Sequence record: PQ850610.1
Length of the DNA stretch: 64,000 bases
Source: Escherichia phage JacquesWildberger_Bas92
Strand: one strand, 5' to 3'
Positions 29,176 to 55,055 of this stretch are shown one piece after another. Under the pieces are notes generated by a model. The model was not told the origin of the DNA and made no database searches. It saw only the letters and a list, made by a program, of their open reading frames with translations. The translations under genes were made by a program, and so were the position numbers. Within the stretch, counting starts at the first letter, position 1. Every line of letters begins with the position of its first letter.

Positions 29176-29994
29176 TTACCAAGATTTATCTAACCATGTC
29201 CAGTCGAACAGGTCTTCCGGAGCCTGACCAACAAAGAGAAGCCGAGCATTCTCAAGCATTTTCTCTTCATCTTCAGTATCGAACTTCTTATAATATTCCA
29301 TTCGTACTATATGATACATGGTCCACTTATCTGTAACCCCAGCCAACAACTTAGCTGCTGCTTTCTTCCCTATCCCTTGACGTCGAAGCTGGAGCTTACC
29401 GCCCCACATCACTTCTTTACGTTCACCACATCCGGGAATATTATCTGTTCCATCTCCAATCAGCATCTGATAGAAGAAATTTTGCCATGAAACTAAATCA
29501 GATACGTAGTGAGGAGGAACCTCTTTTTGTCTTTCTCCACAAGCCCAACGGTAATGCCATCCGGGAGTTATTAACAAATCTTTGTCTCTAGTACAGATGA
29601 TAGTGTTCTTATCTCTACGTTGCCTTTCAGCTAGTGCATCATCAGCCTCTCTCCCAAATACATCTATGTATTCATACTTACCTTTAATATAATCACCGAC
29701 ATTTTGCCAGTGAAAAGGTCTTTCTCCGGGAGGTCTGTTTGCTTTGTAGTCTTGCTGCTTAGCAACATCGAAACGGAAGTTACCGCCTTCGCTGAAGTAG
29801 AACACAACCTTGCTGCAACCTGAGCGAGCAATGATAGTATCTATCTTGTACTGAAGTCGTTCAATCATGAAATTATAATCAACTGGAACACGTCCTGTGT
29901 CAAGAAAGGGATGCTCCTGAGTAAGAGCACCCACTTCATATCGAAGAACGTCAGCATCCACTATAGCTATTTCAGGGAGCTTAACGTCTTCCAT
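29176..29994 (-). CDS. 5'-3' exonuclease / flap endonuclease (FEN)
   Basis: GDGTDNIPGCGERK...GIGKKAAAKLL matches FEN/PolI 5'-exo helix-hairpin-helix region; acidic motifs upstream. Confidence 0.8.
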   Translation of the reverse strand: MEDVKLPEIAIVDADVLRYEVGALTQEHPFLDTGRVPVDYNFMIERLQYKIDTIIARSGCSKVVFYFSEGGNFRFDVAKQQDYKANRPPGERPFHWQNVGDYIKGKYEYIDVFGREADDALAERQRRDKNTIICTRDKDLLITPGWHYRWACGERQKEVPPHYVSDLVSWQNFFYQMLIGDGTDNIPGCGERKEVMWGGKLQLRRQGIGKKAAAKLLAGVTDKWTMYHIVRMEYYKKFDTEDEEKMLENARLLFVGQAPEDLFDWTWLDKSW

Positions 29995-29995
29995 A

Positions 29996-31166
<1,171 letters not shown>

Positions 31167-31418
31167 AATGCATCTCTTTATAAATAGTTTCCGTGTTCTT
31201 CTTCCAGTTAGATAAACCGGTAAGAACCCTCTGAGCAACTTCATCAGCTGCCTTACTTCTTTCAATCTCTAACTCTTGTTGATGCTTTTCTTTATCCAGA
31301 TTGTTACTATCTGTTCTGTACTCATTAAACTTCATTCCGCCAAAGAACACCAGAGCAGAGAAGATAACAAATCCTAGATTATCACTTAAAGTGCTTTGCA
31401 TATTGACCCCAACGAAAA

Positions 31419-33112: not shown

Positions 33113-33505
33113 TCATCGAATCACCAAAGGCTCTTCAGAGTACACAGGAGCGGCTATTTCTACAGGAGGTGCTGCCCTAAGGTCATTAAGTCTTACTCCC
33201 TTCAGCATCCCATCTAGGTGGTCCTTTTTGGGTATTCCAACAGGGAAGTCGTCAATCCAGATATCTACAAAGAAACCTAACTGGCGACATACGTCATCTT
33301 TCTGAACACCATTGCAAAAGATGATAGGAATCTGCAAACGCTCTGCATCAATCTTAATGTCATGATTATCATACCCATTAGGCTCTGCAAAGCGATAAGT
33401 TACAAAACGTACATCATAACCTTTGGCTTGCATTAATGCCACCACAGATCGCCACAGCTCTTTATCTGAGGTGTAAGTATCATCGTAATCTAAACCAATA
33501 TTCAT
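33113..33505 (-). CDS. HAD-superfamily phosphatase-like protein (possible nucleotidase)
   Basis: N-terminal DxDxT motif (LDYDDTYT) and later DD motif (VDIWIDDFP). Confidence 0.4.
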   Translation of the reverse strand: MNIGLDYDDTYTSDKELWRSVVALMQAKGYDVRFVTYRFAEPNGYDNHDIKIDAERLQIPIIFCNGVQKDDVCRQLGFFVDIWIDDFPVGIPKKDHLDGMLKGVRLNDLRAAPPVEIAAPVYSEEPLVIR

Positions 33506-33518
33506 GTTGAATCCTTTT

Positions 33519-33546
33519 AGACAAGAAAAGCCGCCCTAAGGCAGCT
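33519..33546 (-). terminator. terminator-like hairpin
   Basis: on - strand GCTGCC-ttag-GGCGGC followed by ttttctt. Confidence 0.4.
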
Positions 33547-34105
33547 TCTTATTTAACTATTCACTTTAGCTTCAAGTGTTTCATTTTCAATACTCAAGTC
33601 AATCACTACGCCAGTAAGCTCAACGACTGCTTGGCGAAGGGCGTCTTTACCCATAGAATGTACTTGAGATAAGAAGAAAGCTTTACCTTCTTCCGTGGAT
33701 AGGGTTTCTTTTAATTCAGAAGCAGTCATTGATATTCCTTATTTTACATTGTATAAATTCGCATGATTGTACCACCATCAGCTTCAATAGCAGAAACAAC
33801 TTCATCTCGTTCTTCATCCGTGTACACTAGTACGCTTTTAAACGAGCCAGTCACATCTGTGTACAAAATGTTGTACTTGGGAGGTGGTTTACGGTAAATA
33901 CCTTCCATCATTCTTTCTCCTCTCGTTCTTTCCACAGTTCAGCAAGCTCTAGGTAGAACTCAGCTTCATCAGGACGTCCTTGTTCATTACAGATGGCGCT
34001 TTGACGATAACACCAATCTGATGGCATCTCTTCCACTTCAATCTCCTTATTATGAACTAATCAATAAGACTAGTTCATTTGTATTTCAATCTTTCAGTTC
34101 TGAAT

Positions 34106-35950
34106 TTAGTGTGTATGCATCCAGTTTAACCCAATCTGACAATCAGAAGCCAGAGGACATTCCATGTTCAAGTACTCACCAGCCTTCTTAACACAAAGCT
34201 CGGTGTACTCTTTGAGTTTCTGTACATCATTACGGTTCACTGAGAACTGGCCCTCATCGTGCATATCAATTACCTTAGCACAACGAACTCCATCTTTCTC
34301 AATCCACTTGTTAAGGAACATCATAGCATATTTCATAACAACAGCACCAGCACATTGCAGGAGTGTGTTAAGGGCTTTATGAACCATAACCTTACCAGTG
34401 GCATCCCGTCTCATTGTAATCTTACGACCATCAACGCCAATCAAATACCCTTGAGCAGCTTTCTCTGTCATACGATCAATGAGGATTGCAATACATGGGT
34501 TCTCTGCCAAGAAGCGTGCTCGCATCACTGAACCTTCGTCAGCTCCACCACCTACGATTGAACCAAGCTTAGCATCACCAGCACCATAGTTAAACGCGTA
34601 GATAAACGTTTTAGCGTTGTCACGAGTAGGAAGACCAGCAAGTTTCTGGTTGTGGGAGTGGATATCACCTTCAAGAAGGATATCACGATACATAATAGCA
34701 GAAGCTAAACCACGTTCTGCCAGAGCTTTCTTAGCTGGATTATTCTCTTCGATTGCTTCAGCAAGCATATCCCTACACTCTTTAATGAGGTAGTGAGCGA
34801 GCATACGAAGTTCAAGTCCAGAACCATCATACCCTAAGAATACTTCTTTACCAGCGGGTATGTAATATTTGTAAGCACCTACAGGCTTATCTTTCTTCCC
34901 CGGCTTACCTTTCTCGTAAATTACGTTAGTACCTTTTCGTATATAACAACCATCAGGAACAACGTTAGTAATAACGAAAGGACGAGAGTGATCACTGTCT
35001 GAATTATAGTCAGACTCAAACAAACTGCGACACTCATGACCAAACAAACCACGGGAGGGAATATTAACCACGATACGATGTTTGAATCGAAAAGTTGGCG
35101 TAGCGCAGCTGTTAGCTTCTGCCGAAAGTTTACCATCTTCGCGTTCCTTTGCTATGAGTCCACTGATAAGACCTAGCCTGTGAGCCGCTACAACGCGCCT
35201 CTTAAGCAAACTTCCAACACTCCCTAGCTCGCCCCCTAACCCTTCTTCAAGAGTCTCCTCGAGGTTTGTAGGAGCTGTAGGCCACTTGTTTGAGGTAGCT
35301 AGTGCTATCTTAATCTCATCAAACGTGATAGGTCTACTTCGGTTAGGGTTTAAACCTAAACCAAACACATAAGCCTTCATATAGTTCTTAGTCTTAAACC
35401 TAAAATGCTTCTCTAAGAACCTCCTAATATCTGCGTCAACCATCTCGGCTGTCTGCTTCTGTTTAGCATTACCTCGCATCCAAGCTGAATACCATGCTTG
35501 GTATGTCCCATACTTTCGAATATCTTTCTTGATTTCAAAAGTATTCCAAGGTTTCTTTGATACGTTAAACTCTGGAGGAAGAAAACCCTCATCCATAAGG
35601 GCTTCTTTAACTCGTGCATCTTTCGATGGGTCAAAGTCTACATACTCAACACAGGTGAATGCTCCACCAATGTCTTCTCTCTTAAGGCCAACTCTATCAC
35701 AGTAGGCTTGAGGCCACTTCTGTAAAGCTCCAGACTTCTTAAATGGCTTCATATAAGTAGAGCCATCTAATCTCATCTTAGGTAAGAGAGGGATCAGTTC
35801 TTTGTCGATATTAACAATAATCTCTTTAAGGAGGTGAACATACCACCGAGCATTTCTTCGGTTGAAACTCACTCCGTGCTTCGCTTGCTTAGAGATTATA
35901 TCAGCGACAGTCATCTCTGTCAAAAATGGGAGAGCGTCCGGGTTGCTCAC
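34106..35950 (-). CDS. DNA polymerase, family A polymerase domain (no exonuclease domain)
   Basis: motif A DGSGLELR, motif B RDNAKTFIYAFNYGAG, motif C HDEGQF. Confidence 0.85.
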   Translation of the reverse strand: MSNPDALPFLTEMTVADIISKQAKHGVSFNRRNARWYVHLLKEIIVNIDKELIPLLPKMRLDGSTYMKPFKKSGALQKWPQAYCDRVGLKREDIGGAFTCVEYVDFDPSKDARVKEALMDEGFLPPEFNVSKKPWNTFEIKKDIRKYGTYQAWYSAWMRGNAKQKQTAEMVDADIRRFLEKHFRFKTKNYMKAYVFGLGLNPNRSRPITFDEIKIALATSNKWPTAPTNLEETLEEGLGGELGSVGSLLKRRVVAAHRLGLISGLIAKEREDGKLSAEANSCATPTFRFKHRIVVNIPSRGLFGHECRSLFESDYNSDSDHSRPFVITNVVPDGCYIRKGTNVIYEKGKPGKKDKPVGAYKYYIPAGKEVFLGYDGSGLELRMLAHYLIKECRDMLAEAIEENNPAKKALAERGLASAIMYRDILLEGDIHSHNQKLAGLPTRDNAKTFIYAFNYGAGDAKLGSIVGGGADEGSVMRARFLAENPCIAILIDRMTEKAAQGYLIGVDGRKITMRRDATGKVMVHKALNTLLQCAGAVVMKYAMMFLNKWIEKDGVRCAKVIDMHDEGQFSVNRNDVQKLKEYTELCVKKAGEYLNMECPLASDCQIGLNWMHTH

Positions 35951-38597: not shown

Positions 38598-38954
38598 TCA
38601 TACTGGTTGATTGCTCTTGTTAGTACCCACACTTTCATTATTCTTCTCTTTATGAAGTCTATAAACAGCTGTCGCCATGCAAGCAACAGCTTCATTGTGT
38701 GGGAGATGCATCCCTGTAGAACCATCCCAATCTTTGAACTCATTGTCAAAGACTCCGGTAGGCTCTGGATACAGAGCTTGCAGCTCAACCAAATCATTAG
38801 CAACTTGTTGCCATTTATCATCAGACCAGATAGGGTCATCCAACCAGTAATACAAATAGGAATGGATGATTAATTGCCTTCTGTGCCGATTAATTACTTC
38901 AGCGGGACTTATCTCACTTCCATTTGAAGTCCTAAATGTATTACTGTCAATCAT
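38598..38954 (-). CDS. stand-alone protein resembling NAD-dependent DNA ligase domain Ia
   Basis: HSYLYYWLDDPIWSDDKWQQVANDLVELQALYPE resembles LigA N-terminal Ia pattern; no adenylation domain adjacent. Confidence 0.4.
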   Translation of the reverse strand: MIDSNTFRTSNGSEISPAEVINRHRRQLIIHSYLYYWLDDPIWSDDKWQQVANDLVELQALYPEPTGVFDNEFKDWDGSTGMHLPHNEAVACMATAVYRLHKEKNNESVGTNKSNQPV

Positions 38955-38956
38955 GA

Positions 38957-39613
38957 TTAATTATTCCAAGTAGTTGATAAGGCTTTCCAAGAGATAGGAT
39001 AAAGTTTCTTCATTTCTTCATCAATAGTTTGTGCAAACAGTCGGACCTCATACTGAGCGTGCTCTGACAGACGTTGACGGCACACATCTGACCAGCCATA
39101 TAGAGAGCCAGTCCACACCCACTCAGTGATCATCCCCTGAGGAAGAACAAATCGAGCTTGCTCTGGTGCAACAAATTCAATCAACTTATCATATGCTGCT
39201 AGAGAGGATTCATATGCATCGTTAATCAGCATTAATGCTTCAGCTCGTTCTCCATCGATGAGTTGAATCCCTGAACCTGCATGGAGGTCCGAAGGTCTCG
39301 CAAAAATCTCTTTAGGGATGAAGACTTCAACTGCTCCATCTTTATACCGACGGGACATTTCGTTCCACGAGAATCCAACCTGATGCTTGCCCAGCTGTCT
39401 CGCAATTGCGATAGGTGCTTTGCATCGGAAACTGACTTGTGGGTGTCGGAATGGAGTAACATGCTTTTCTCTTGCGAGGAAGTTGATGAGACGTTCATCA
39501 CGTTCATTTAAATCACCTTCACGGGTTACGCCAAAGGAAACTCGAGCTGCGTTTACTACGCTACGATCGCTTCCCATAGCTTCGATTAATGTTGCTTGTA
39601 GTTGTTCATTCAT
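38957..39613 (-). CDS. thyX: flavin-dependent thymidylate synthase ThyX-like (variant RHR motif)
   Basis: AARVSF...HVTPF...KAPIAIARQ...SRRY pattern of ThyX; canonical RHR replaced by KHQ. Confidence 0.75.
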   Translation of the reverse strand: MNEQLQATLIEAMGSDRSVVNAARVSFGVTREGDLNERDERLINFLAREKHVTPFRHPQVSFRCKAPIAIARQLGKHQVGFSWNEMSRRYKDGAVEVFIPKEIFARPSDLHAGSGIQLIDGERAEALMLINDAYESSLAAYDKLIEFVAPEQARFVLPQGMITEWVWTGSLYGWSDVCRQRLSEHAQYEVRLFAQTIDEEMKKLYPISWKALSTTWNN

Positions 39614-39628
39614 CCGTGAATATCCTTA

Positions 39629-40149: not shown

Positions 40150-40761
40150 TTAGTAAGACACATCACCACTTGAGTGGGACATGTTGCTCTTGACGAAGTA
40201 GCAATACTTGCCAAGACCTTCATTGATTTCTTGAAGCATACTTTGATCGACTGGATAAGTGGCTAAATCGCCATCAAACTCATCCATCTTCTCAATAATA
40301 CACATCAAGGTCATGCACATATCAGAGAGCATACCGTCCATGTCTAGATCAGCGTTACCCTCTGAGAACCAAGCATGAGAGAGGTAGTTAGCTGCTGTAG
40401 CATCCACTTTAACACAGTGGTAACGCATACGTTCAGCAATACGATCTCCTACTTGTCGTGCGTAATCTTCCAGCTCGTCAAACATACCATGAACACCCTG
40501 AAATCCTGCACCAGAGACGTTCCAGTGGTAGTTTTTAGCTTTGATGTGCAAGAGTTCCATATTAGCTTGTAAGCAGCTCAGGATGTGTTCTAGGCTGTTT
40601 CCGCTAATCATGCCTTGCATTGTTTCAAGGCGAGAGATTGAAAGCTCAGACCGGTCTAACATGCTGTAGCTGTCACGACCAATCTCAGGTAAATCAAAGA
40701 CATTCTTATGCATTTGGGTTTTCTCCATCAAGTTCAACTGAGTTAGCAACGTTACGTGCAA
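40150..40761 (-). CDS. Dps/ferritin-like protein (true start probably internal, ~40713-40728)
   Basis: HWNVSGAGFQGVHGMFDELEDYARQVGDRIAERM matches Dps ferroxidase-site region; C-terminal FVKSNM similar to Dps. Confidence 0.6.
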   Translation of the reverse strand: MHVTLLTQLNLMEKTQMHKNVFDLPEIGRDSYSMLDRSELSISRLETMQGMISGNSLEHILSCLQANMELLHIKAKNYHWNVSGAGFQGVHGMFDELEDYARQVGDRIAERMRYHCVKVDATAANYLSHAWFSEGNADLDMDGMLSDMCMTLMCIIEKMDEFDGDLATYPVDQSMLQEINEGLGKYCYFVKSNMSHSSGDVSY

Positions 40762-41317: not shown

Positions 41318-41851
41318 TTACACACCTTTAGATGCAACTACACCTTCAGAGTTATTATAACGACCCTTCACTGCATAGGAATGCTCCCCTGCATGAGAGT
41401 GCTCAAACATGACCATCTGACCAACACGCATACCAGCACGAACTCGTAAGCTGTGGTGCTTTGTTACGTTATGAAATTCAAATGTCAGCTTACTGCTATT
41501 AAATCCAGCGTCTGCCCACCCAGCGTGGAGGTGGTTCAAACCACAACGAGCCATAGATGAACGCAGGACAAACAGGCTTGAAATGTTATCTGGAAGGTTA
41601 AACTCCTCCATAGAGTGAGCCAAGAAGAACTGACCCGGAGTGATAACCAAACCCTCTTCAGGAATTTTTACTTCCTTCCACTGAAGATTCTCTTTCGCAT
41701 CAATATCAACGATGCCATCAGCCTGTTCTTCAACAAGGATAGTATCACCAATACGGATATCCACACTAGCAGCGTTAACATACTTATGCTCCGCATCCAG
41801 ATAGCCATTGTCAATTACATCATGCAGTTCAATACTTCCTAGTAAACTCAT
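41318..41851 (-). CDS. dcd: dCTP deaminase
   Basis: VDIRIG, RSSMARCGL, GWADAGF and C-terminal Y-N-N-S-E-G-V-V-A-S pattern align with bacterial Dcd. Confidence 0.75.
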   Translation of the reverse strand: MSLLGSIELHDVIDNGYLDAEHKYVNAASVDIRIGDTILVEEQADGIVDIDAKENLQWKEVKIPEEGLVITPGQFFLAHSMEEFNLPDNISSLFVLRSSMARCGLNHLHAGWADAGFNSSKLTFEFHNVTKHHSLRVRAGMRVGQMVMFEHSHAGEHSYAVKGRYNNSEGVVASKGV

Positions 41852-52066: not shown

Positions 52067-52873
52067 TTATGCTACCTGAAGGCGTTTAATCTGCTGGTCC
52101 GCTTCTTTAACGTTATTACCGTTAATGATTTCATGAAGCTTCTCAATCGGAAGGCGAGAGTGCAATGCCATCAGAGTGGACATGTCACACTGCTGAACAA
52201 CCTTGTCAACCTGATCATAAACAAACTTACGGTTTTCACGATCACTAATCCAGAAGTTAGACAGGGAACGATATTCAATACCATAGTCCTTGTAGCGGAT
52301 TGCAGATGCTTTACCGTAGAGTTCTTTACGGCGAGTGTCTTTATCCATAATAACTGCTGGGAGGGATAGGAAGTAGTCACACAGCACACCCAGCATCATC
52401 TGAGTTTGCAGGGTGATATCCAAAGCACCAACTACGCCAAGATGTACGTGACCACCGGCAGTACGAAGCCCCTTATTTTGAGAAGTCGGGGATGGGTTCT
52501 TCTGACCAGTGAAAGCGTTGAAATCAGGAGTACATCCAAAGATGAACGCTGATTCATTGAAAGTCTTCATCTCTTCTTCAGTGAAGATGTGAGAGCTAAC
52601 ACCCGGAGCTGTTTCCATGTCCAGTTTGTTCAGGACATTATTGGTGAGATCGATACCACGTTGCATGTTGTCATTAAACGCTTCAAAACCACTCTGTGGG
52701 TCAATATCAAACTCAGCCAGTACGTTGTCCTCTTGAAGACGAACATCCTTAGCCAGAGCGATCTTATCGTCCTTAGAACAACCTAACAGACCAGCTACAG
52801 AAGTGATGATTCCTTTGCTGGTACGAACGAACATTTCCGGATCCGATCCTATTAAGAATTTGCGCTTAGTCAT
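52067..52873 (-). CDS. second GS-like amidoligase-like protein
   Basis: LIGSDPEMF and GGHVHLG motifs parallel the ExE/HxH pattern of upstream amidoligase. Confidence 0.4.
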   Translation of the reverse strand: MTKRKFLIGSDPEMFVRTSKGIITSVAGLLGCSKDDKIALAKDVRLQEDNVLAEFDIDPQSGFEAFNDNMQRGIDLTNNVLNKLDMETAPGVSSHIFTEEEMKTFNESAFIFGCTPDFNAFTGQKNPSPTSQNKGLRTAGGHVHLGVVGALDITLQTQMMLGVLCDYFLSLPAVIMDKDTRRKELYGKASAIRYKDYGIEYRSLSNFWISDRENRKFVYDQVDKVVQQCDMSTLMALHSRLPIEKLHEIINGNNVKEADQQIKRLQVA

Positions 52874-53837
52874 TGTAATACTCCACTAGTTCAGAAAAGA
52901 GAGATGAGATTGTGTTACCGATTTCTTCAGGATTAAGACCAGAATCTATTCCAGTACGCTGAATTATTCGTGCTGTAAAGTTTTGTACTGTAATGTTTTC
53001 CAACTTATTATCTATTGCTTCACGTTTGTGACCATAACAGTTGGACCAGAGTTTTAACCACTCTGACATTGTTTCATACTCATCTGGATCTTGATCTTTA
53101 GCACGAGCAAATCTTCGTAAGACATCTGTGTTGTGGTTACGAACATAACCATTCTCGTTGTCACCAACACCGAAGGGGTTTTGAACCCATACTTGCTTCG
53201 TGTATTCATCAGAGTCAACAACCAAAGGAAGGAATGCTGCTGCTGACATATTGTTGTCAATAACAACAGACGTGCTTTCACTACTCCCATTGGAAGCTCC
53301 TCGTTGAGACCACCTACCAAAGAAGTCACGACCCAACCCAGCTAACAACAGAGCGATGCCAATGCGTTTACGCTTCAGCCACTCTTCCCTGTCTTCAATT
53401 CCTTCTGCTAGGAAATCCATTCCACGATACTGCCCTTCCAAAATGCTACGGAAGAGCATAAGTCCTGTGAAGATTTGATCTGCTGGATGCTCACGGAGGT
53501 TGACAGCTACGCTATTCGCTGAAGTGATTGTGAATACATCGCGATAGCAAGACATGGAGTTCATAATATCTGCTGTTTCAACCAAGTTCTTTTCAATATA
53601 AGATGCATCATGACCGTGAAAAGAGTGAGTCCAGTAATTCAGCATCTCCAGTTGCAAGTTGATATCACGGTTGAAGCGTCTATAACGCCCCTCTTCCATG
53701 ATAACTTCGCCATTAATATCGCTTACACATTGGCCTTGCATGTAGTTGTGAATACCGAAGCACCCACGACCTAAGAACTTCTGTTCCCCTAAATCTTGTT
53801 GAAGATTCAGAGGTACGATCGTTGTGGAGATTGACAT
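52866..53837 (-). CDS. hypothetical protein in ligase cluster
   Basis: 323-aa ORF, overlapping stop/start with neighbours. Confidence 0.35.
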   Translation of the reverse strand: MSISTTIVPLNLQQDLGEQKFLGRGCFGIHNYMQGQCVSDINGEVIMEEGRYRRFNRDINLQLEMLNYWTHSFHGHDASYIEKNLVETADIMNSMSCYRDVFTITSANSVAVNLREHPADQIFTGLMLFRSILEGQYRGMDFLAEGIEDREEWLKRKRIGIALLLAGLGRDFFGRWSQRGASNGSSESTSVVIDNNMSAAAFLPLVVDSDEYTKQVWVQNPFGVGDNENGYVRNHNTDVLRRFARAKDQDPDEYETMSEWLKLWSNCYGHKREAIDNKLENITVQNFTARIIQRTGIDSGLNPEEIGNTISSLFSELVEYYND

Positions 53838-53847
53838 AACTAACCTT

Positions 53848-55044
53848 TTATTTTCCTAAAAATAATCCGCTCATAATACCATCCCACTCAGAGGATGGAA
53901 TCACTGAATACTCCGAACTTTGGTCCAGAGTTCCACTACTAAATCTCTGAACAATGTTATAGATGTTGAACAGGTCTTTAGCCTCAGTACGGATACCGTA
54001 GACTAATTTATCAGATGTTCTTTCATCTTTAGATACCCGACGAGCAAAATTAACCAGAAGGTTGTCACATTTAAGCGTTTCTGACCCACTCTCTACCAAA
54101 TCAGGGTGCATCACAGGCAAGAACATCGAGTTATTGACTCGCAACTCTGCTGTTTCGTCATTCTCATAATGAATCCACTTAAAGTCTTCATCACGGAAGT
54201 GACCACAACCGTCTCTGTACGACTGCTGACGCCAAGGCACTTTAAATGCTTTAGCATACTTATCAGCCATGCCAACTGTAAACAACGACGCTGGGAAGAT
54301 GCAAGCATCCCAATCATTACCGACCAGAGTTGCTTTCGTTTCACCCAAGAGGTTAGTATAAGTGCTAATCATTCGGGAATAAATATAAGCCTGAAGGATT
54401 GTCCAACCTTCAATCAACCATTTATGAAGGAAGGTTTCAACTTGACTCTCTTCGTCTTCGCAATAGAAGGTTCGGTCTAGCATTAAATAGAACAGACAAC
54501 GATCAGCAGGGATGTTCTCAGTTGCTACACCCATAAAACCTTTCTCGTGCCAGCGTAAACAGGAGGGACGATCTTTGTCCACAAATGCTTCCATAGCTTC
54601 CAGTACAGCACGAGGTGAGGTTTGGTATTCAGGGTTTTTACTATTCCAACGATCAATGTTGTTCTTAGGAGGTGTGTCTTCATCTTCATACGAACACCAA
54701 CTTAAAGCTTCAGATACGTGCTTTTCATCACACCAATGCCTAAAACCTAACATCTTCATGTGAGTTCCGGAGTTCCAGATATGCTTGATTTTACACATAT
54801 CCATCTCTCGGCTTAACAGGAACTCTTCCCCATCAGCGCTACGAACGTTAGCTTCTTCATTCCACACTCGAACGTGCATATTCCACCCATAAGTTGCCTC
54901 ATACGTGTTAGGGTCGAAGTATTCATATTCGTCATCATCTTCATCAACGCCACCGTTATAGTTGCGGAGCTGAAGGAATCCATAGCAAGGAGGATAGACC
55001 GTTAAAACTCTACCTTCAATATCTTCTAATGTTACTGGAAACAT
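53848..55044 (-). CDS. hypothetical protein in ligase cluster
   Basis: 398-aa ORF, Trp/Cys/His-rich. Confidence 0.35.
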   Translation of the reverse strand: MFPVTLEDIEGRVLTVYPPCYGFLQLRNYNGGVDEDDDEYEYFDPNTYEATYGWNMHVRVWNEEANVRSADGEEFLLSREMDMCKIKHIWNSGTHMKMLGFRHWCDEKHVSEALSWCSYEDEDTPPKNNIDRWNSKNPEYQTSPRAVLEAMEAFVDKDRPSCLRWHEKGFMGVATENIPADRCLFYLMLDRTFYCEDEESQVETFLHKWLIEGWTILQAYIYSRMISTYTNLLGETKATLVGNDWDACIFPASLFTVGMADKYAKAFKVPWRQQSYRDGCGHFRDEDFKWIHYENDETAELRVNNSMFLPVMHPDLVESGSETLKCDNLLVNFARRVSKDERTSDKLVYGIRTEAKDLFNIYNIVQRFSSGTLDQSSEYSVIPSSEWDGIMSGLFLGK

Positions 55045-55055
55045 TATACCAACCT

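Follow-up and report, generated by a model that had tools for sequence, protein, structure and literature searches.

The gene at positions 38957 to 39613 (minus strand) of Escherichia phage JacquesWildberger_Bas92 is an ordinary member of the flavin-dependent thymidylate synthase (ThyX) family. All coordinates refer to the window, the whole 64,000-nucleotide stretch of sequence record PQ850610.1 that was analyzed. The 218-residue product carries Lys-His-Gln (KHQ) in place of the Arg-His-Arg (RHR) triplet of canonical ThyX enzymes. Comparison of homologous sequences indicates that KHQ characterizes a whole ThyX branch, one that has lost the arginine at the third motif position and gained an arginine at position 89 (T. 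maritima numbering). We consider it very probable that the protein is a genuine dTMP synthase acting together with a nearby phage dCTP deaminase. The initial annotation of this region had offered two readings of the triplet: variation that the enzyme tolerates, or a changed product such as hydroxymethyl-dUMP for hypermodified DNA. The branch-wide exchange of arginines and the retention of the other substrate and catalytic residues support the former. The latter is not supported: KHQ is found at bacterial housekeeping loci, non-RHR/SRRY forms are spread over many unrelated phages, and the triplet gives no indication of an exotic DNA base.

The window belongs to a phiEco32-like coliphage, and the thyX annotation was already known, this phage group having carried it since phiEco32 was sequenced. 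Across the phiEco32-like coliphages (phiEco32, SU10, LAMP, and Bas86 to Bas94) the protein is annotated thyX or thy1 and is either identical to that of Bas92 (LAMP "putative thymidylate synthase," 100%) or 75 to 93% identical. No difference was noted between the ThyX of the Kuravirus relatives and the protein studied here.

Family assignment and residue mapping

The open reading frame is intact and full length, with 218 codons, an ATG start and a Shine-Dalgarno-like AAGGA 10 nt upstream of it (39623 to 39627, minus strand). The protein matched the Pfam Thy1 profile (PF02511) with an E value of 8.9e-44 over profile positions 1 to 190 of 191, scoring 150 bits against a cutoff of 24.8, and the thyX equivalog model TIGR02170 with 127.3 bits against a cutoff of 87.9. 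Searches of PDB sequences with phmmer returned 6j61 (E value, 7.5e-30) and 1kq4 (E value, 5.5e-25). An AF2 model, computed as a monomer without ligands, had a pLDDT of 94.8 and a pTM of 0.89, and its best PDB matches in Foldseek were all T. maritima ThyX, with TM scores of 0.78 to 0.82 over about 210 columns. The phage protein thus shares the length class of the canonical enzymes (T. maritima TM0449, PDB 1O26/1KQ4; M. tuberculosis, H. pylori, and PBCV-1) and matches the T. maritima fold over its full length (TM about 0.8) at 33 to 34% identity.

Inspection of the primary structure bore out the earlier statement that the protein is ThyX-like throughout: AARVSF (residues 22 to 27), HVTPF (51 to 55), KAPIAIARQ (65 to 73), and SRRY (87 to 90) are all present. 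The KHQ triplet occupies residues 76 to 78 (codons AAG CAT CAG, 39380 to 39388, minus strand), as had been read by eye. It opens the variant motif K76-H-Q-V-G-F-S-W-N-E-M-S-R-R-Y90 (39344 to 39388, minus strand), which is a unique exact match in the window. The T. maritima counterpart is R78-H-R-I-A-S-Y-N-E-L-S-G-R-Y91, so that the phage loop is one residue longer and eight rather than seven residues separate the triplet from the serine. In the phmmer alignment, phage "arqlgKHQvgfswnemsrry" is paired with T. maritima "arqwfRHRia-synelsgry," placing K76, H77, and Q78 on R78, H79, and R80, and two independent profile alignments agreed on this register. A genuine RHR at another place was ruled out; the tripeptide is absent from the rest of the protein, and all three alignment methods share one register.

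Read literally, the signature R-H-R-X7-8-S becomes K-H-Q-X8-S in the phage protein, with the His and the Ser kept at an allowed spacing. Because that signature was derived from the canonical branch, it describes a subclass of ThyX and not the whole homologous family. Since the curated models are matched, the fold agrees, and the other residues are retained, we place the phage protein in the ThyX family and flag it as a non-RHR member.

The other residues of the active site were mapped onto T. maritima ThyX. The counterparts of R28, S30, H53, P56, F57, H59, R74, Q75, H79, N85, E86, S88, R90, Y91, E144, R147, R174, H178, and Q180 are all found in the phage protein, E86, S88, R90, and Y91 corresponding to E85, S87, R89, and Y90. 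The folate, dUMP, and catalytic residues are hence shared with the canonical enzymes, as are the motif's central His and its Ser. H51 (39461 to 39463), kept in 147 of about 150 branch representatives, corresponds to H53, which stacks on the folate pteridine (PMC11940539). R72-Q73 (39395 to 39400) corresponds to R74-Q75 of the nucleotide pocket; Gln75 lines the uracil pocket of PBCV-1 ThyX (PMC3498832). E151 and R154 (39152 to 39163), equivalent to E144 and R147, are invariant in the branch, and R181, H185, and Q187 (39053 to 39073) are equivalent to R174, H178, and Q180; all of these codons lie on the minus strand. T. maritima R174 is mutated (R174A/K) in structures among the PDB matches. Taken over about 150 diverse branch representatives, the substrate and catalytic counterparts are near invariant, except for H178 (89 of about 150). 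The differences from T. maritima ThyX are R78 to K, R80 to Q, G89 to R (R88 of the phage protein; codon 39350 to 39352, minus strand), N163 to S, and R165 to Y. This combination of residues was seen in none of the solved or characterized ThyX enzymes that we classified. Likewise, a characterized non-RHR ThyX was sought among the candidates classified by motif and none was found; the T. maritima and 6j61 enzymes are canonical RHR proteins.

Conservation and distribution of the non-RHR branch

KHQ was invariant in all 120 of the closest homologues, at identities down to 55%, and 7 of the 8 possible synonymous codon combinations were used across 49 loci. An unchanging triplet written in varied codons points to purifying selection on the amino acids, and on these sequence comparisons the deviation from RHR is neither chance nor a sequencing error. 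The non-RHR motif marks a ThyX branch of hundreds of clusters at 50% identity, and the motif and about 25 further positions are strongly conserved across hundreds of divergent sequences. In some homologues inteins are inserted in exactly the KHQ loop, as would be expected where a site is functionally critical.

The arginines at positions 80 and 89 proved to be almost mutually exclusive. In a sample of 504 sequences, 373 lacked R80 and had R89, while 120 had R80 and lacked R89; only 11 were exceptions, 8 with neither arginine and 3 with both. R80 was missing from 381 of the 504 in total, and where it is lost SGRY becomes SRRY. The same split recurs among cultured phages and plasmids.

The branch ranges over many phages, giant-virus-like contigs, Spirochaetia, Chloroflexota, Nitrospinaceae, and Poribacteria. 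Loci of the KHQ type, located with a genome scan built on a 13-sequence alignment, include one on the Spirochaetia chromosome OZ251568.1, where thyX neighbors the genes for lipoamide dehydrogenase, citrate synthase, and PyrF-PyrE, a Chloroflexota locus with pyruvate dehydrogenase E1/E2, and a Nitrospinaceae locus with IspH and AcrB. A non-RHR/SRRY thyX is also carried by plasmids of S. aureus and Enterococcus, where it overlaps dfrE, the gene for a trimethoprim-resistance dihydrofolate reductase (DHFR). The wider set of non-RHR phages includes N4-like Vibrio VBP32, Klebsiella MY01, Pseudomonas LUZ100, Lentibacter ICBM2, and the Rheinheimera Barba phages, whose proteins share the K-H-x ... S-R-R-Y architecture with that of Bas92. 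The more distant phages have KHK instead of KHQ, or KY-x in the case of Streptomyces and Bacillus phages. The canonical RHR was found in ThyX of Borrelia burgdorferi lp54 and B. turicatae lp160, in mycobacteriophage L5 gp48 and Bxz1-like Rizal, and in Thermus phage P74-26, cyanophage S-ESS1, and Rhizobium pRLG201. We also noted 530-residue tandem forms among the homologues (P0246 and P0262), which might conceivably correspond to the characterized chlamydial ThyX, and an RHT-type group that might include Dictyostelium Thy1. This group centers on P0156, whose contig is giant-virus-like (DUF5760, DUF3431, and glycosyltransferases).

Proposed catalysis and alternative readings

ThyX is a homotetramer that binds FAD, and three subunits form each active site. 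As a ThyX, the phage enzyme would use NADPH and transfer the CH2-tetrahydrofolate methylene first to reduced FAD and then to C5 of dUMP, and would reduce it to the methyl group of dTMP without making dihydrofolate. The contacts of the RHR arginines are described in more than one way. The initial annotation had them bind dUMP, which agrees with hydrogen bonds from R78 and R80 (PMC3498832) but is not the whole account: a 2019 review has RHR contact chiefly the phosphates and ribityl of FAD (PMC6514825), and structures from 2025 place R78 facing flavin N1/C2=O (PMC11940539). The last is a role that a lysine can fill, and K76 in place of the first arginine would keep a positive charge beside flavin N1/C2=O. 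Residue 89 of PBCV-1 ThyX is able to place its side chain in the pocket for the dUMP phosphate (PMC3498832). R88, which follows the catalytic S87 in the phage protein (S87-R88-R89-Y90, compared with S-G/A-R-Y), could accordingly take the dUMP-phosphate contact from the neighboring subunit. We infer that R88 most likely replaces the lost R80 at this pocket.

It is very improbable that the enzyme instead yields a C5-modified dUMP, such as 5-hydroxymethyl-dUMP, which would arise if the exocyclic methylene captured water instead of being reduced by hydride. Two of the three RHR residues do differ, and the chemistry is conceivable, as ThyX catalysis includes an exocyclic-methylene intermediate (PMC8989533); yet the changes affect the phosphate and flavin-N1 contacts and not the C5 chemistry, and the residues around dUMP, the folate, and the N5 face of the flavin are all conserved. 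The identical KHQ...SRRY signature at chromosomal housekeeping loci of bacteria and the other non-RHR/SRRY forms in many unrelated phages also argue against it, and in the dfrE-thyX resistance operons a product other than thymidylate would make no sense. We know of no ThyX-family hydroxymethylase. The phage hydroxymethylases (SPO1 gp29 and T4 gp42; the 5-hmdU enzymes of ViI, M6, and PhiW-14) offer an analogy, the one on which the initial annotation drew, in that they use CH2-THF, act at pyrimidine C5, and belong to nucleotide-metabolism modules. These dUMP and dCMP hydroxymethylases are, however, ThyA-family enzymes unrelated to ThyX in fold and mechanism, as is every known phage hydroxymethylase of the thymidylate synthase type (PMC8989533).

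The restriction phenotype of this phage group bears on the same question. The Gordonclarkvirinae have been described as remarkably resistant to restriction-modification systems without a known modification pathway (PMC11990801). Site avoidance was rejected as the cause for EcoRI, EcoRV, EcoKI, and EcoP1, because sites for each of these enzymes exist (8 EcoRI, 32 EcoRV, and 7 EcoKI sites in the window). Resistance in spite of these sites makes a cryptic DNA modification in the Gordonclarkvirinae possible, and the genome has a large amidoligase/ATP-grasp/amidotransferase cluster of unassigned function. Were ThyX to yield a C5-modified dUMP for virion DNA, possibly elaborated by nucleotidyltransferase or amidoligase genes, the resistance would be explained and this would be the first ThyX-family enzyme to supply a DNA modification pathway. 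We regard that as highly unlikely. The genome annotators reported no 5-hmdU DNA kinase, aGPT-Pplase, glycosyltransferase, or other known hypermodification gene (PMC11990801), so that the kinase and aGPT-Pplase partners of the hydroxymethylases are unannotated here, and a ThyA-family dUMP hydroxymethyltransferase of the 5-hmdU route is likewise not annotated in the genome. The termini of phiEco32 were mapped through restriction profiling (PMC9965538), and CCWGG, GATC, and several hexamer palindromes are strongly avoided in the window, which suggests DNA that is exposed to restriction enzymes. The "adjacent ligase cluster" to which the altered product had been tied does not hold up: the "DNA ligase" ORF neighboring thyX is a 118-residue domain Ia only, and the amidoligase cluster lies 7 to 15 kb away, past the replication genes.

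An altered substrate, with the enzyme acting as a C5-methylase on UMP, dCMP, or dUTP, is no less improbable than an altered product. The ThyX family does hold one neofunctionalized paralogue, PolB (PDB 4P5A), a flavoenzyme of ThyX fold and diverged specificity that methylates UMP at C5 in polyoxin biosynthesis and shows that the family can take on new functions (PMC5954106), and the substitutions fall on residues to which hydrogen bonds with dUMP have been ascribed (PMC3498832). PolB, however, is part of a Streptomyces antibiotic gene cluster, whereas the phage gene sits in a replication and nucleotide module, and bona fide ThyX enzymes are far closer to the phage protein (E values, 1e-25 to 1e-30) than PolB is (4p5a; E value, 6.8e-15). 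The phage protein also scores above the thyX equivalog cutoff and retains the uracil- and phosphate-binding R72, Q73, E85, S87, R89, R154, and R181, and the settings in which branch members occur, housekeeping loci and dfr-linked genes, fit dTMP synthesis.

An inactive ThyX-like protein, either decaying or serving as a nucleotide- or flavin-binding regulator, is the least credible reading. Ulmer and colleagues reportedly found in 2008 that R95, H96, and R97 of M. tuberculosis ThyX are each essential, and on that finding a KHQ variant would be inactive unless compensated. Against a relic stand the strong purifying selection on the motif and about 25 positions in hundreds of divergent sequences, the intact, full-length reading frame with a good ribosome-binding site, and the very confident model. 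An ordered exchange of arginines throughout the branch is also not what would be expected of a decaying gene.

Neighborhood, dTTP supply, and significance

The phage dCTP deaminase gene (41318 to 41851, minus strand; Pfam DCD E value, 3.6e-34; TIGR02274, 107.6 bits against a cutoff of 92.8) lies about 1.7 kb upstream of thyX on the same strand and in the same early-gene block. It had been described as next to thyX; it is nearby, but five ORFs separate the two, so they are not adjacent. The context of thyX is the phage replication and nucleotide module, and the only thymidylate synthase-like gene here is the ThyX-family one; the annotation of Bas93, a genome 99.8% identical, lists no ThyA and no DHFR. 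A functional precedent for the pairing of Dcd with ThyX exists in Dictyostelium (PMC10733785). The "dNMP kinase" of Bas93 was dropped as a candidate pathway partner, most of that gene being missing from the window. In the pathway that we propose, the phage deaminase would convert dCTP to dUTP, host dUTPase would convert dUTP to dUMP, and ThyX would convert dUMP to dTMP. Dcd and ThyX together may thereby raise the dTTP supply for a genome of 42% G+C in a host of 51% G+C, with no need for DHFR.

For the phage, then, nothing here is out of the ordinary: with a DHFR-independent thymidylate synthase of its own and a dCTP deaminase, it would tilt the nucleotide pool toward dTTP. What is added lies solely at the level of the enzyme family. 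The textbook "invariant" RHR covers one ThyX branch only; a second, very large branch has relocated the arginine of the third motif position to the residue that follows the catalytic serine and has a lysine at flavin N1. To our knowledge, ThyX inhibitor design and mechanistic work are based wholly on the RHR branch. Motif-based filters, such as "RHRX7S within 2 mismatches" (PMC2826268), can miss or misjudge non-RHR ThyX enzymes, and KHQ should not lead annotators to infer an exotic base.

The KHQ-bearing ThyX of Bas92 and its relatives

The thyX ORF (38957-39613, minus strand) runs for 218 codons from an ATG that an AAGGA ribosome-binding site precedes by 10 nt. Its product matched Pfam Thy1 across the whole profile (E = 8.9e-44) and passed the NCBIfam thyX equivalog (127 bits versus a curated cutoff of 87.9). 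The closest solved structures were the 6j61 enzyme (E = 7.5e-30) and T. maritima ThyX (E = 5.5e-25), and a very confident AlphaFold2 model (pLDDT 94.8) was superimposed on the latter with a TM of about 0.8. In the HMMER alignment, K76-H77-Q78 lay opposite R78-H79-R80 of T. maritima ThyX (reference sequence 100% identical to the database entry, P0392), with one extra residue ahead of the conserved serine (KHQVGFSWNEMSRRY versus RHRIA-SYNELSGRY). Two profile alignments reproduced this register, and no RHR was found elsewhere when the whole 218-residue protein was checked. The initial annotation of a ThyX-like protein with KHQ at the RHR position therefore stands, on both the alignments and the modeled fold.

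Over a 4-kb stretch around thyX, AidaStucki_Bas93 was 99.8% identical, and LAMP, phiEco32, SU10, and about 90 other phiEco32-like podoviruses (Gordonclarkvirinae) showed 93 to 97% identity. The gene at the thyX position is annotated as thymidylate synthase (thyX/thy1) in all of these relatives, and the LAMP protein is 100% identical to that of Bas92. From its sequence, we regard the Bas92 thyX as an ordinary gene predicted to encode a ThyX thymidylate synthase, one already annotated in this phage group.

Bas93 carries about 1.8 kb, between the exonuclease and sigma-factor genes, that is absent from the window. As seen when window 29994-30262 was compared with Bas93 record 29960-31321, the missing stretch holds an HNH endonuclease, a "GTP-binding domain" gene, and the N-terminal half of a "deoxynucleoside monophosphate kinase," of which only the last 87 codons persist in the window (29999-30259, 99% identical to Bas93). 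The Bas93 record shows the DNA polymerase I gene (Bas93_0042/0043; window about 33400-35950, minus strand) as a join of two segments that enclose an endonuclease VII ORF, which suggests an intron-type or homing-endonuclease insertion.

Distribution of the non-RHR branch

The idea that KHQ is peculiar to this phage was rejected: each of the 120 nearest homologues (identity as low as 55%) has the triplet, and many cultured phages carry a non-RHR ThyX. The latter include the N4-like Vibrio VBP32 and Klebsiella MY01, Pseudomonas LUZ100, Lentibacter ICBM2, and Rheinheimera Barba phages, and the type occurs as KY-x in Streptomyces and Bacillus phages. Canonical RHR was found in Thermus P74-26, cyanophage S-ESS1, and mycobacteriophages Rizal and L5. 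A search among 1.84 billion cluster representatives gave 369 matches below an E value of 1e-30; among the best 150 of these, 147 could be scored at the motif, and the canonical triplet was missing in essentially all (KHQ, 68; KHK, 18; RHT, 9; KHT, 8; RHQ, 6; and others). Seven of the eight possible synonymous codon combinations for KHQ were used across 49 loci, a pattern expected under purifying selection on the amino acids.

Intein-like insertions in the motif loop were seen in three metagenomic homologues (P0121, 480 aa; P0135, 352 aa; P0221, 642 aa), each separating the KHQ triplet from the WNE-SRRY segment at precisely this point (e.g., KHQSGF/C...N/SWNERSMRY, slashes marking the split). 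Inteins typically interrupt functionally critical sites. KHQ is what one normally finds in a large and conserved ThyX branch that lacks Arg80 but has Arg89 (T. maritima numbering) and in which SRRY replaces SGRY.

A 559-kb contig (L070; GCA_013572995.1, JACCDX010832861) encodes a 318-aa RHT...SRRY ThyX (P0156) next to DUF5760, DUF3431, VWA, AAA, and glycosyltransferase genes. Because this neighborhood is giant-virus-like, nucleocytoplasmic large DNA viruses probably also belong to the branch.

Genomic context and the product of the enzyme

When each prokaryotic species was scanned through one genome, KHQ-type genes were found at 50 loci, several of them among cellular housekeeping genes. On a 1.79-Mb Spirochaetia chromosome, thyX neighbors genes for lipoamide dehydrogenase, citrate synthase, and a PyrF-PyrE fusion, and its start overlaps the stop of a short-chain dehydrogenase gene. 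The gene adjoins pyruvate dehydrogenase E1 and E2 in Chloroflexota and IspH and AcrB in four Nitrospinaceae MAGs; three Poribacteria MAGs also carry KHQ-type genes, and other loci have prophage-like surroundings (e.g., Phenylobacterium). On the S. aureus plasmid pNTUH_6457 (L066) and an Enterococcus lactis plasmid, the start of a non-RHR thyX (KYV...SRRY) falls on the final base of dfrE, a DHFR gene for trimethoprim resistance. The two genes form a DHFR-ThyX resistance operon, a classical folate/thymidylate pairing; ThyX yields no dihydrofolate and so should lower dependence on DHFR. As read from sequence, the housekeeping loci, the dfrE pairing, and the inteins all fit a thymidylate synthase, and none fits an exotic-base enzyme.

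The dCTP deaminase gene (41318-41851, minus strand), initially placed next to thyX, is in the same gene block but lies 1.7 kb and five ORFs away. Neither ThyA nor DHFR is annotated in the near-identical Bas93 genome. Together with the deaminase in the block, this fits a route that would be of the Gram-negative type (dCTP to dUTP to dUMP to dTMP). A Dcd and ThyX pairing has been shown to be functional in Dictyostelium (PMC10733785). Between the two phage genes is an ORF annotated "DNA binding protein" (40150-40761, minus strand) with a ferritin/Dps-like domain (PF00210, E = 2.9e-7). Somewhere within the 4-kb region that holds this ORF, an "anti-restriction nuclease" is named in RefSeq records of related phages.

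It had also been proposed that KHQ may signal an altered product (e.g., hydroxymethyl-dUMP), tied through an adjacent ligase cluster to hypermodified DNA. Some DNA modification in these phages is possible. The group's reported restriction-modification resistance is not accounted for by missing sites, an explanation we rejected since EcoRI (8), EcoRV (32), EcoKI (7), and EcoP1 (91) sites are all present in the 64-kb window. However, nothing ties any modification to thyX, and an exotic-base product does not fit the housekeeping loci or the dfrE-thyX pairing; we consider an altered product highly improbable, and the motif is not a sign of hypermodified DNA. The proposed link to ligases was likewise not evident. 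The gene directly downstream of thyX (38598-38954, minus strand), annotated "DNA ligase" in related genomes, encodes a stand-alone 118-aa NAD-dependent ligase domain Ia (PF22745, E = 2.5e-35). Lacking adenylation and OB domains, this protein is predicted to be unable to ligate alone; it may act on or with host LigA. The conserved amidoligase-type cluster (about 45.6-55 kb [45600-55050], minus strand) lies 7 to 15 kb from thyX, beyond dCTP deaminase, nucleotidyltransferase, exonuclease, and primase-helicase genes. It comprises gamma-glutamyl cyclotransferase, ATP-grasp (RimK-like) ligase, glutamine amidotransferase, amidoligase, COOH-NH2 ligase, and several hypothetical genes.

The BASEL authors speculate that these phages have dU-DNA, made via the dCTP deaminase and the neighboring 433-aa "nucleotidyltransferase" (41861-43162, minus strand; PHROG 12715), for which they suspect a DNA modification role (PMC11990801). 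The latter resembles the poly(A)-polymerase head domain only weakly (E = 0.002) and had no NCBIfam match. The phage-encoded ThyX itself argues against dU-DNA. In the window, CCWGG is strongly avoided (4 observed versus about 74 expected), as are GATC (129 versus 238 to 296), PstI sites (0 versus 10 to 15), and several hexamer palindromes; fourteen hexamer palindromes are wholly absent. This avoidance suggests that Bas92 DNA is exposed to restriction enzymes. The termini of phiEco32 were mapped through restriction profiling (PMC9965538).

Residue changes and the proposed role of arginine 88

Functional positions of T. maritima ThyX were mapped onto 150 branch representatives. R28, S30, H53, P56, F57, H59, R74, Q75, H79, N85, E86, S88, R90, Y91, E144, R147, R174, and Q180 were nearly invariant, and the H178 counterpart was kept in 89 of about 150; the Bas92 protein retains all of these positions, H178 included. 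The systematic changes were R78 to K; R80 to Q, T, or K, with R almost never retained; G89 to R (R88 in Bas92); N163 to S; and R165 to a hydrophobic or aromatic side chain. Among 504 pooled sequences, including 120 canonical ones gathered with a T. maritima/phage profile, Arg80 and Arg89 were almost mutually exclusive (Arg89 only, 373; Arg80 only, 120; neither, 8; both, 3). Because these counts stem from two deep branches and not from numerous separate events, they serve as a class signature and are no statistical proof of compensation.

The initial statement that the RHR arginines contact dUMP holds in part. Arg78, Arg80, Ser88, and Arg90 hydrogen-bond dUMP according to Basta et al. (2012), and in PBCV-1 ThyX the position-89 side chain (Gln) can enter the dUMP phosphate pocket (PMC3498832). 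According to a 2019 review, however, the main partners of RHR are parts of FAD, namely the AMP phosphate, ribityl, and FMN phosphate, with the first arginine also touching the isoalloxazine and dUMP (PMC6514825), and in reduced-enzyme structures from 2025, R78 faces flavin N1/C2=O, stabilizing FADH- (PMC11940539). K76 could keep the positive charge of R78 at this site, and R88 would be well placed to stand in for R80 at the dUMP phosphate. On these grounds, we infer that the KHQ variant represents a relocated phosphate and flavin contact that would leave the C5 chemistry untouched. Ulmer et al. reportedly found in 2008 that the RHR residues are essential in the M. tuberculosis enzyme, so the KHQ variant would be expected to need the proposed compensation. 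We found no biochemically tested non-RHR member: every characterized or solved ThyX that could be classified was RHR. The "invariant" RHR motif is branch specific, and the other branch appears to use a K...R88 solution.
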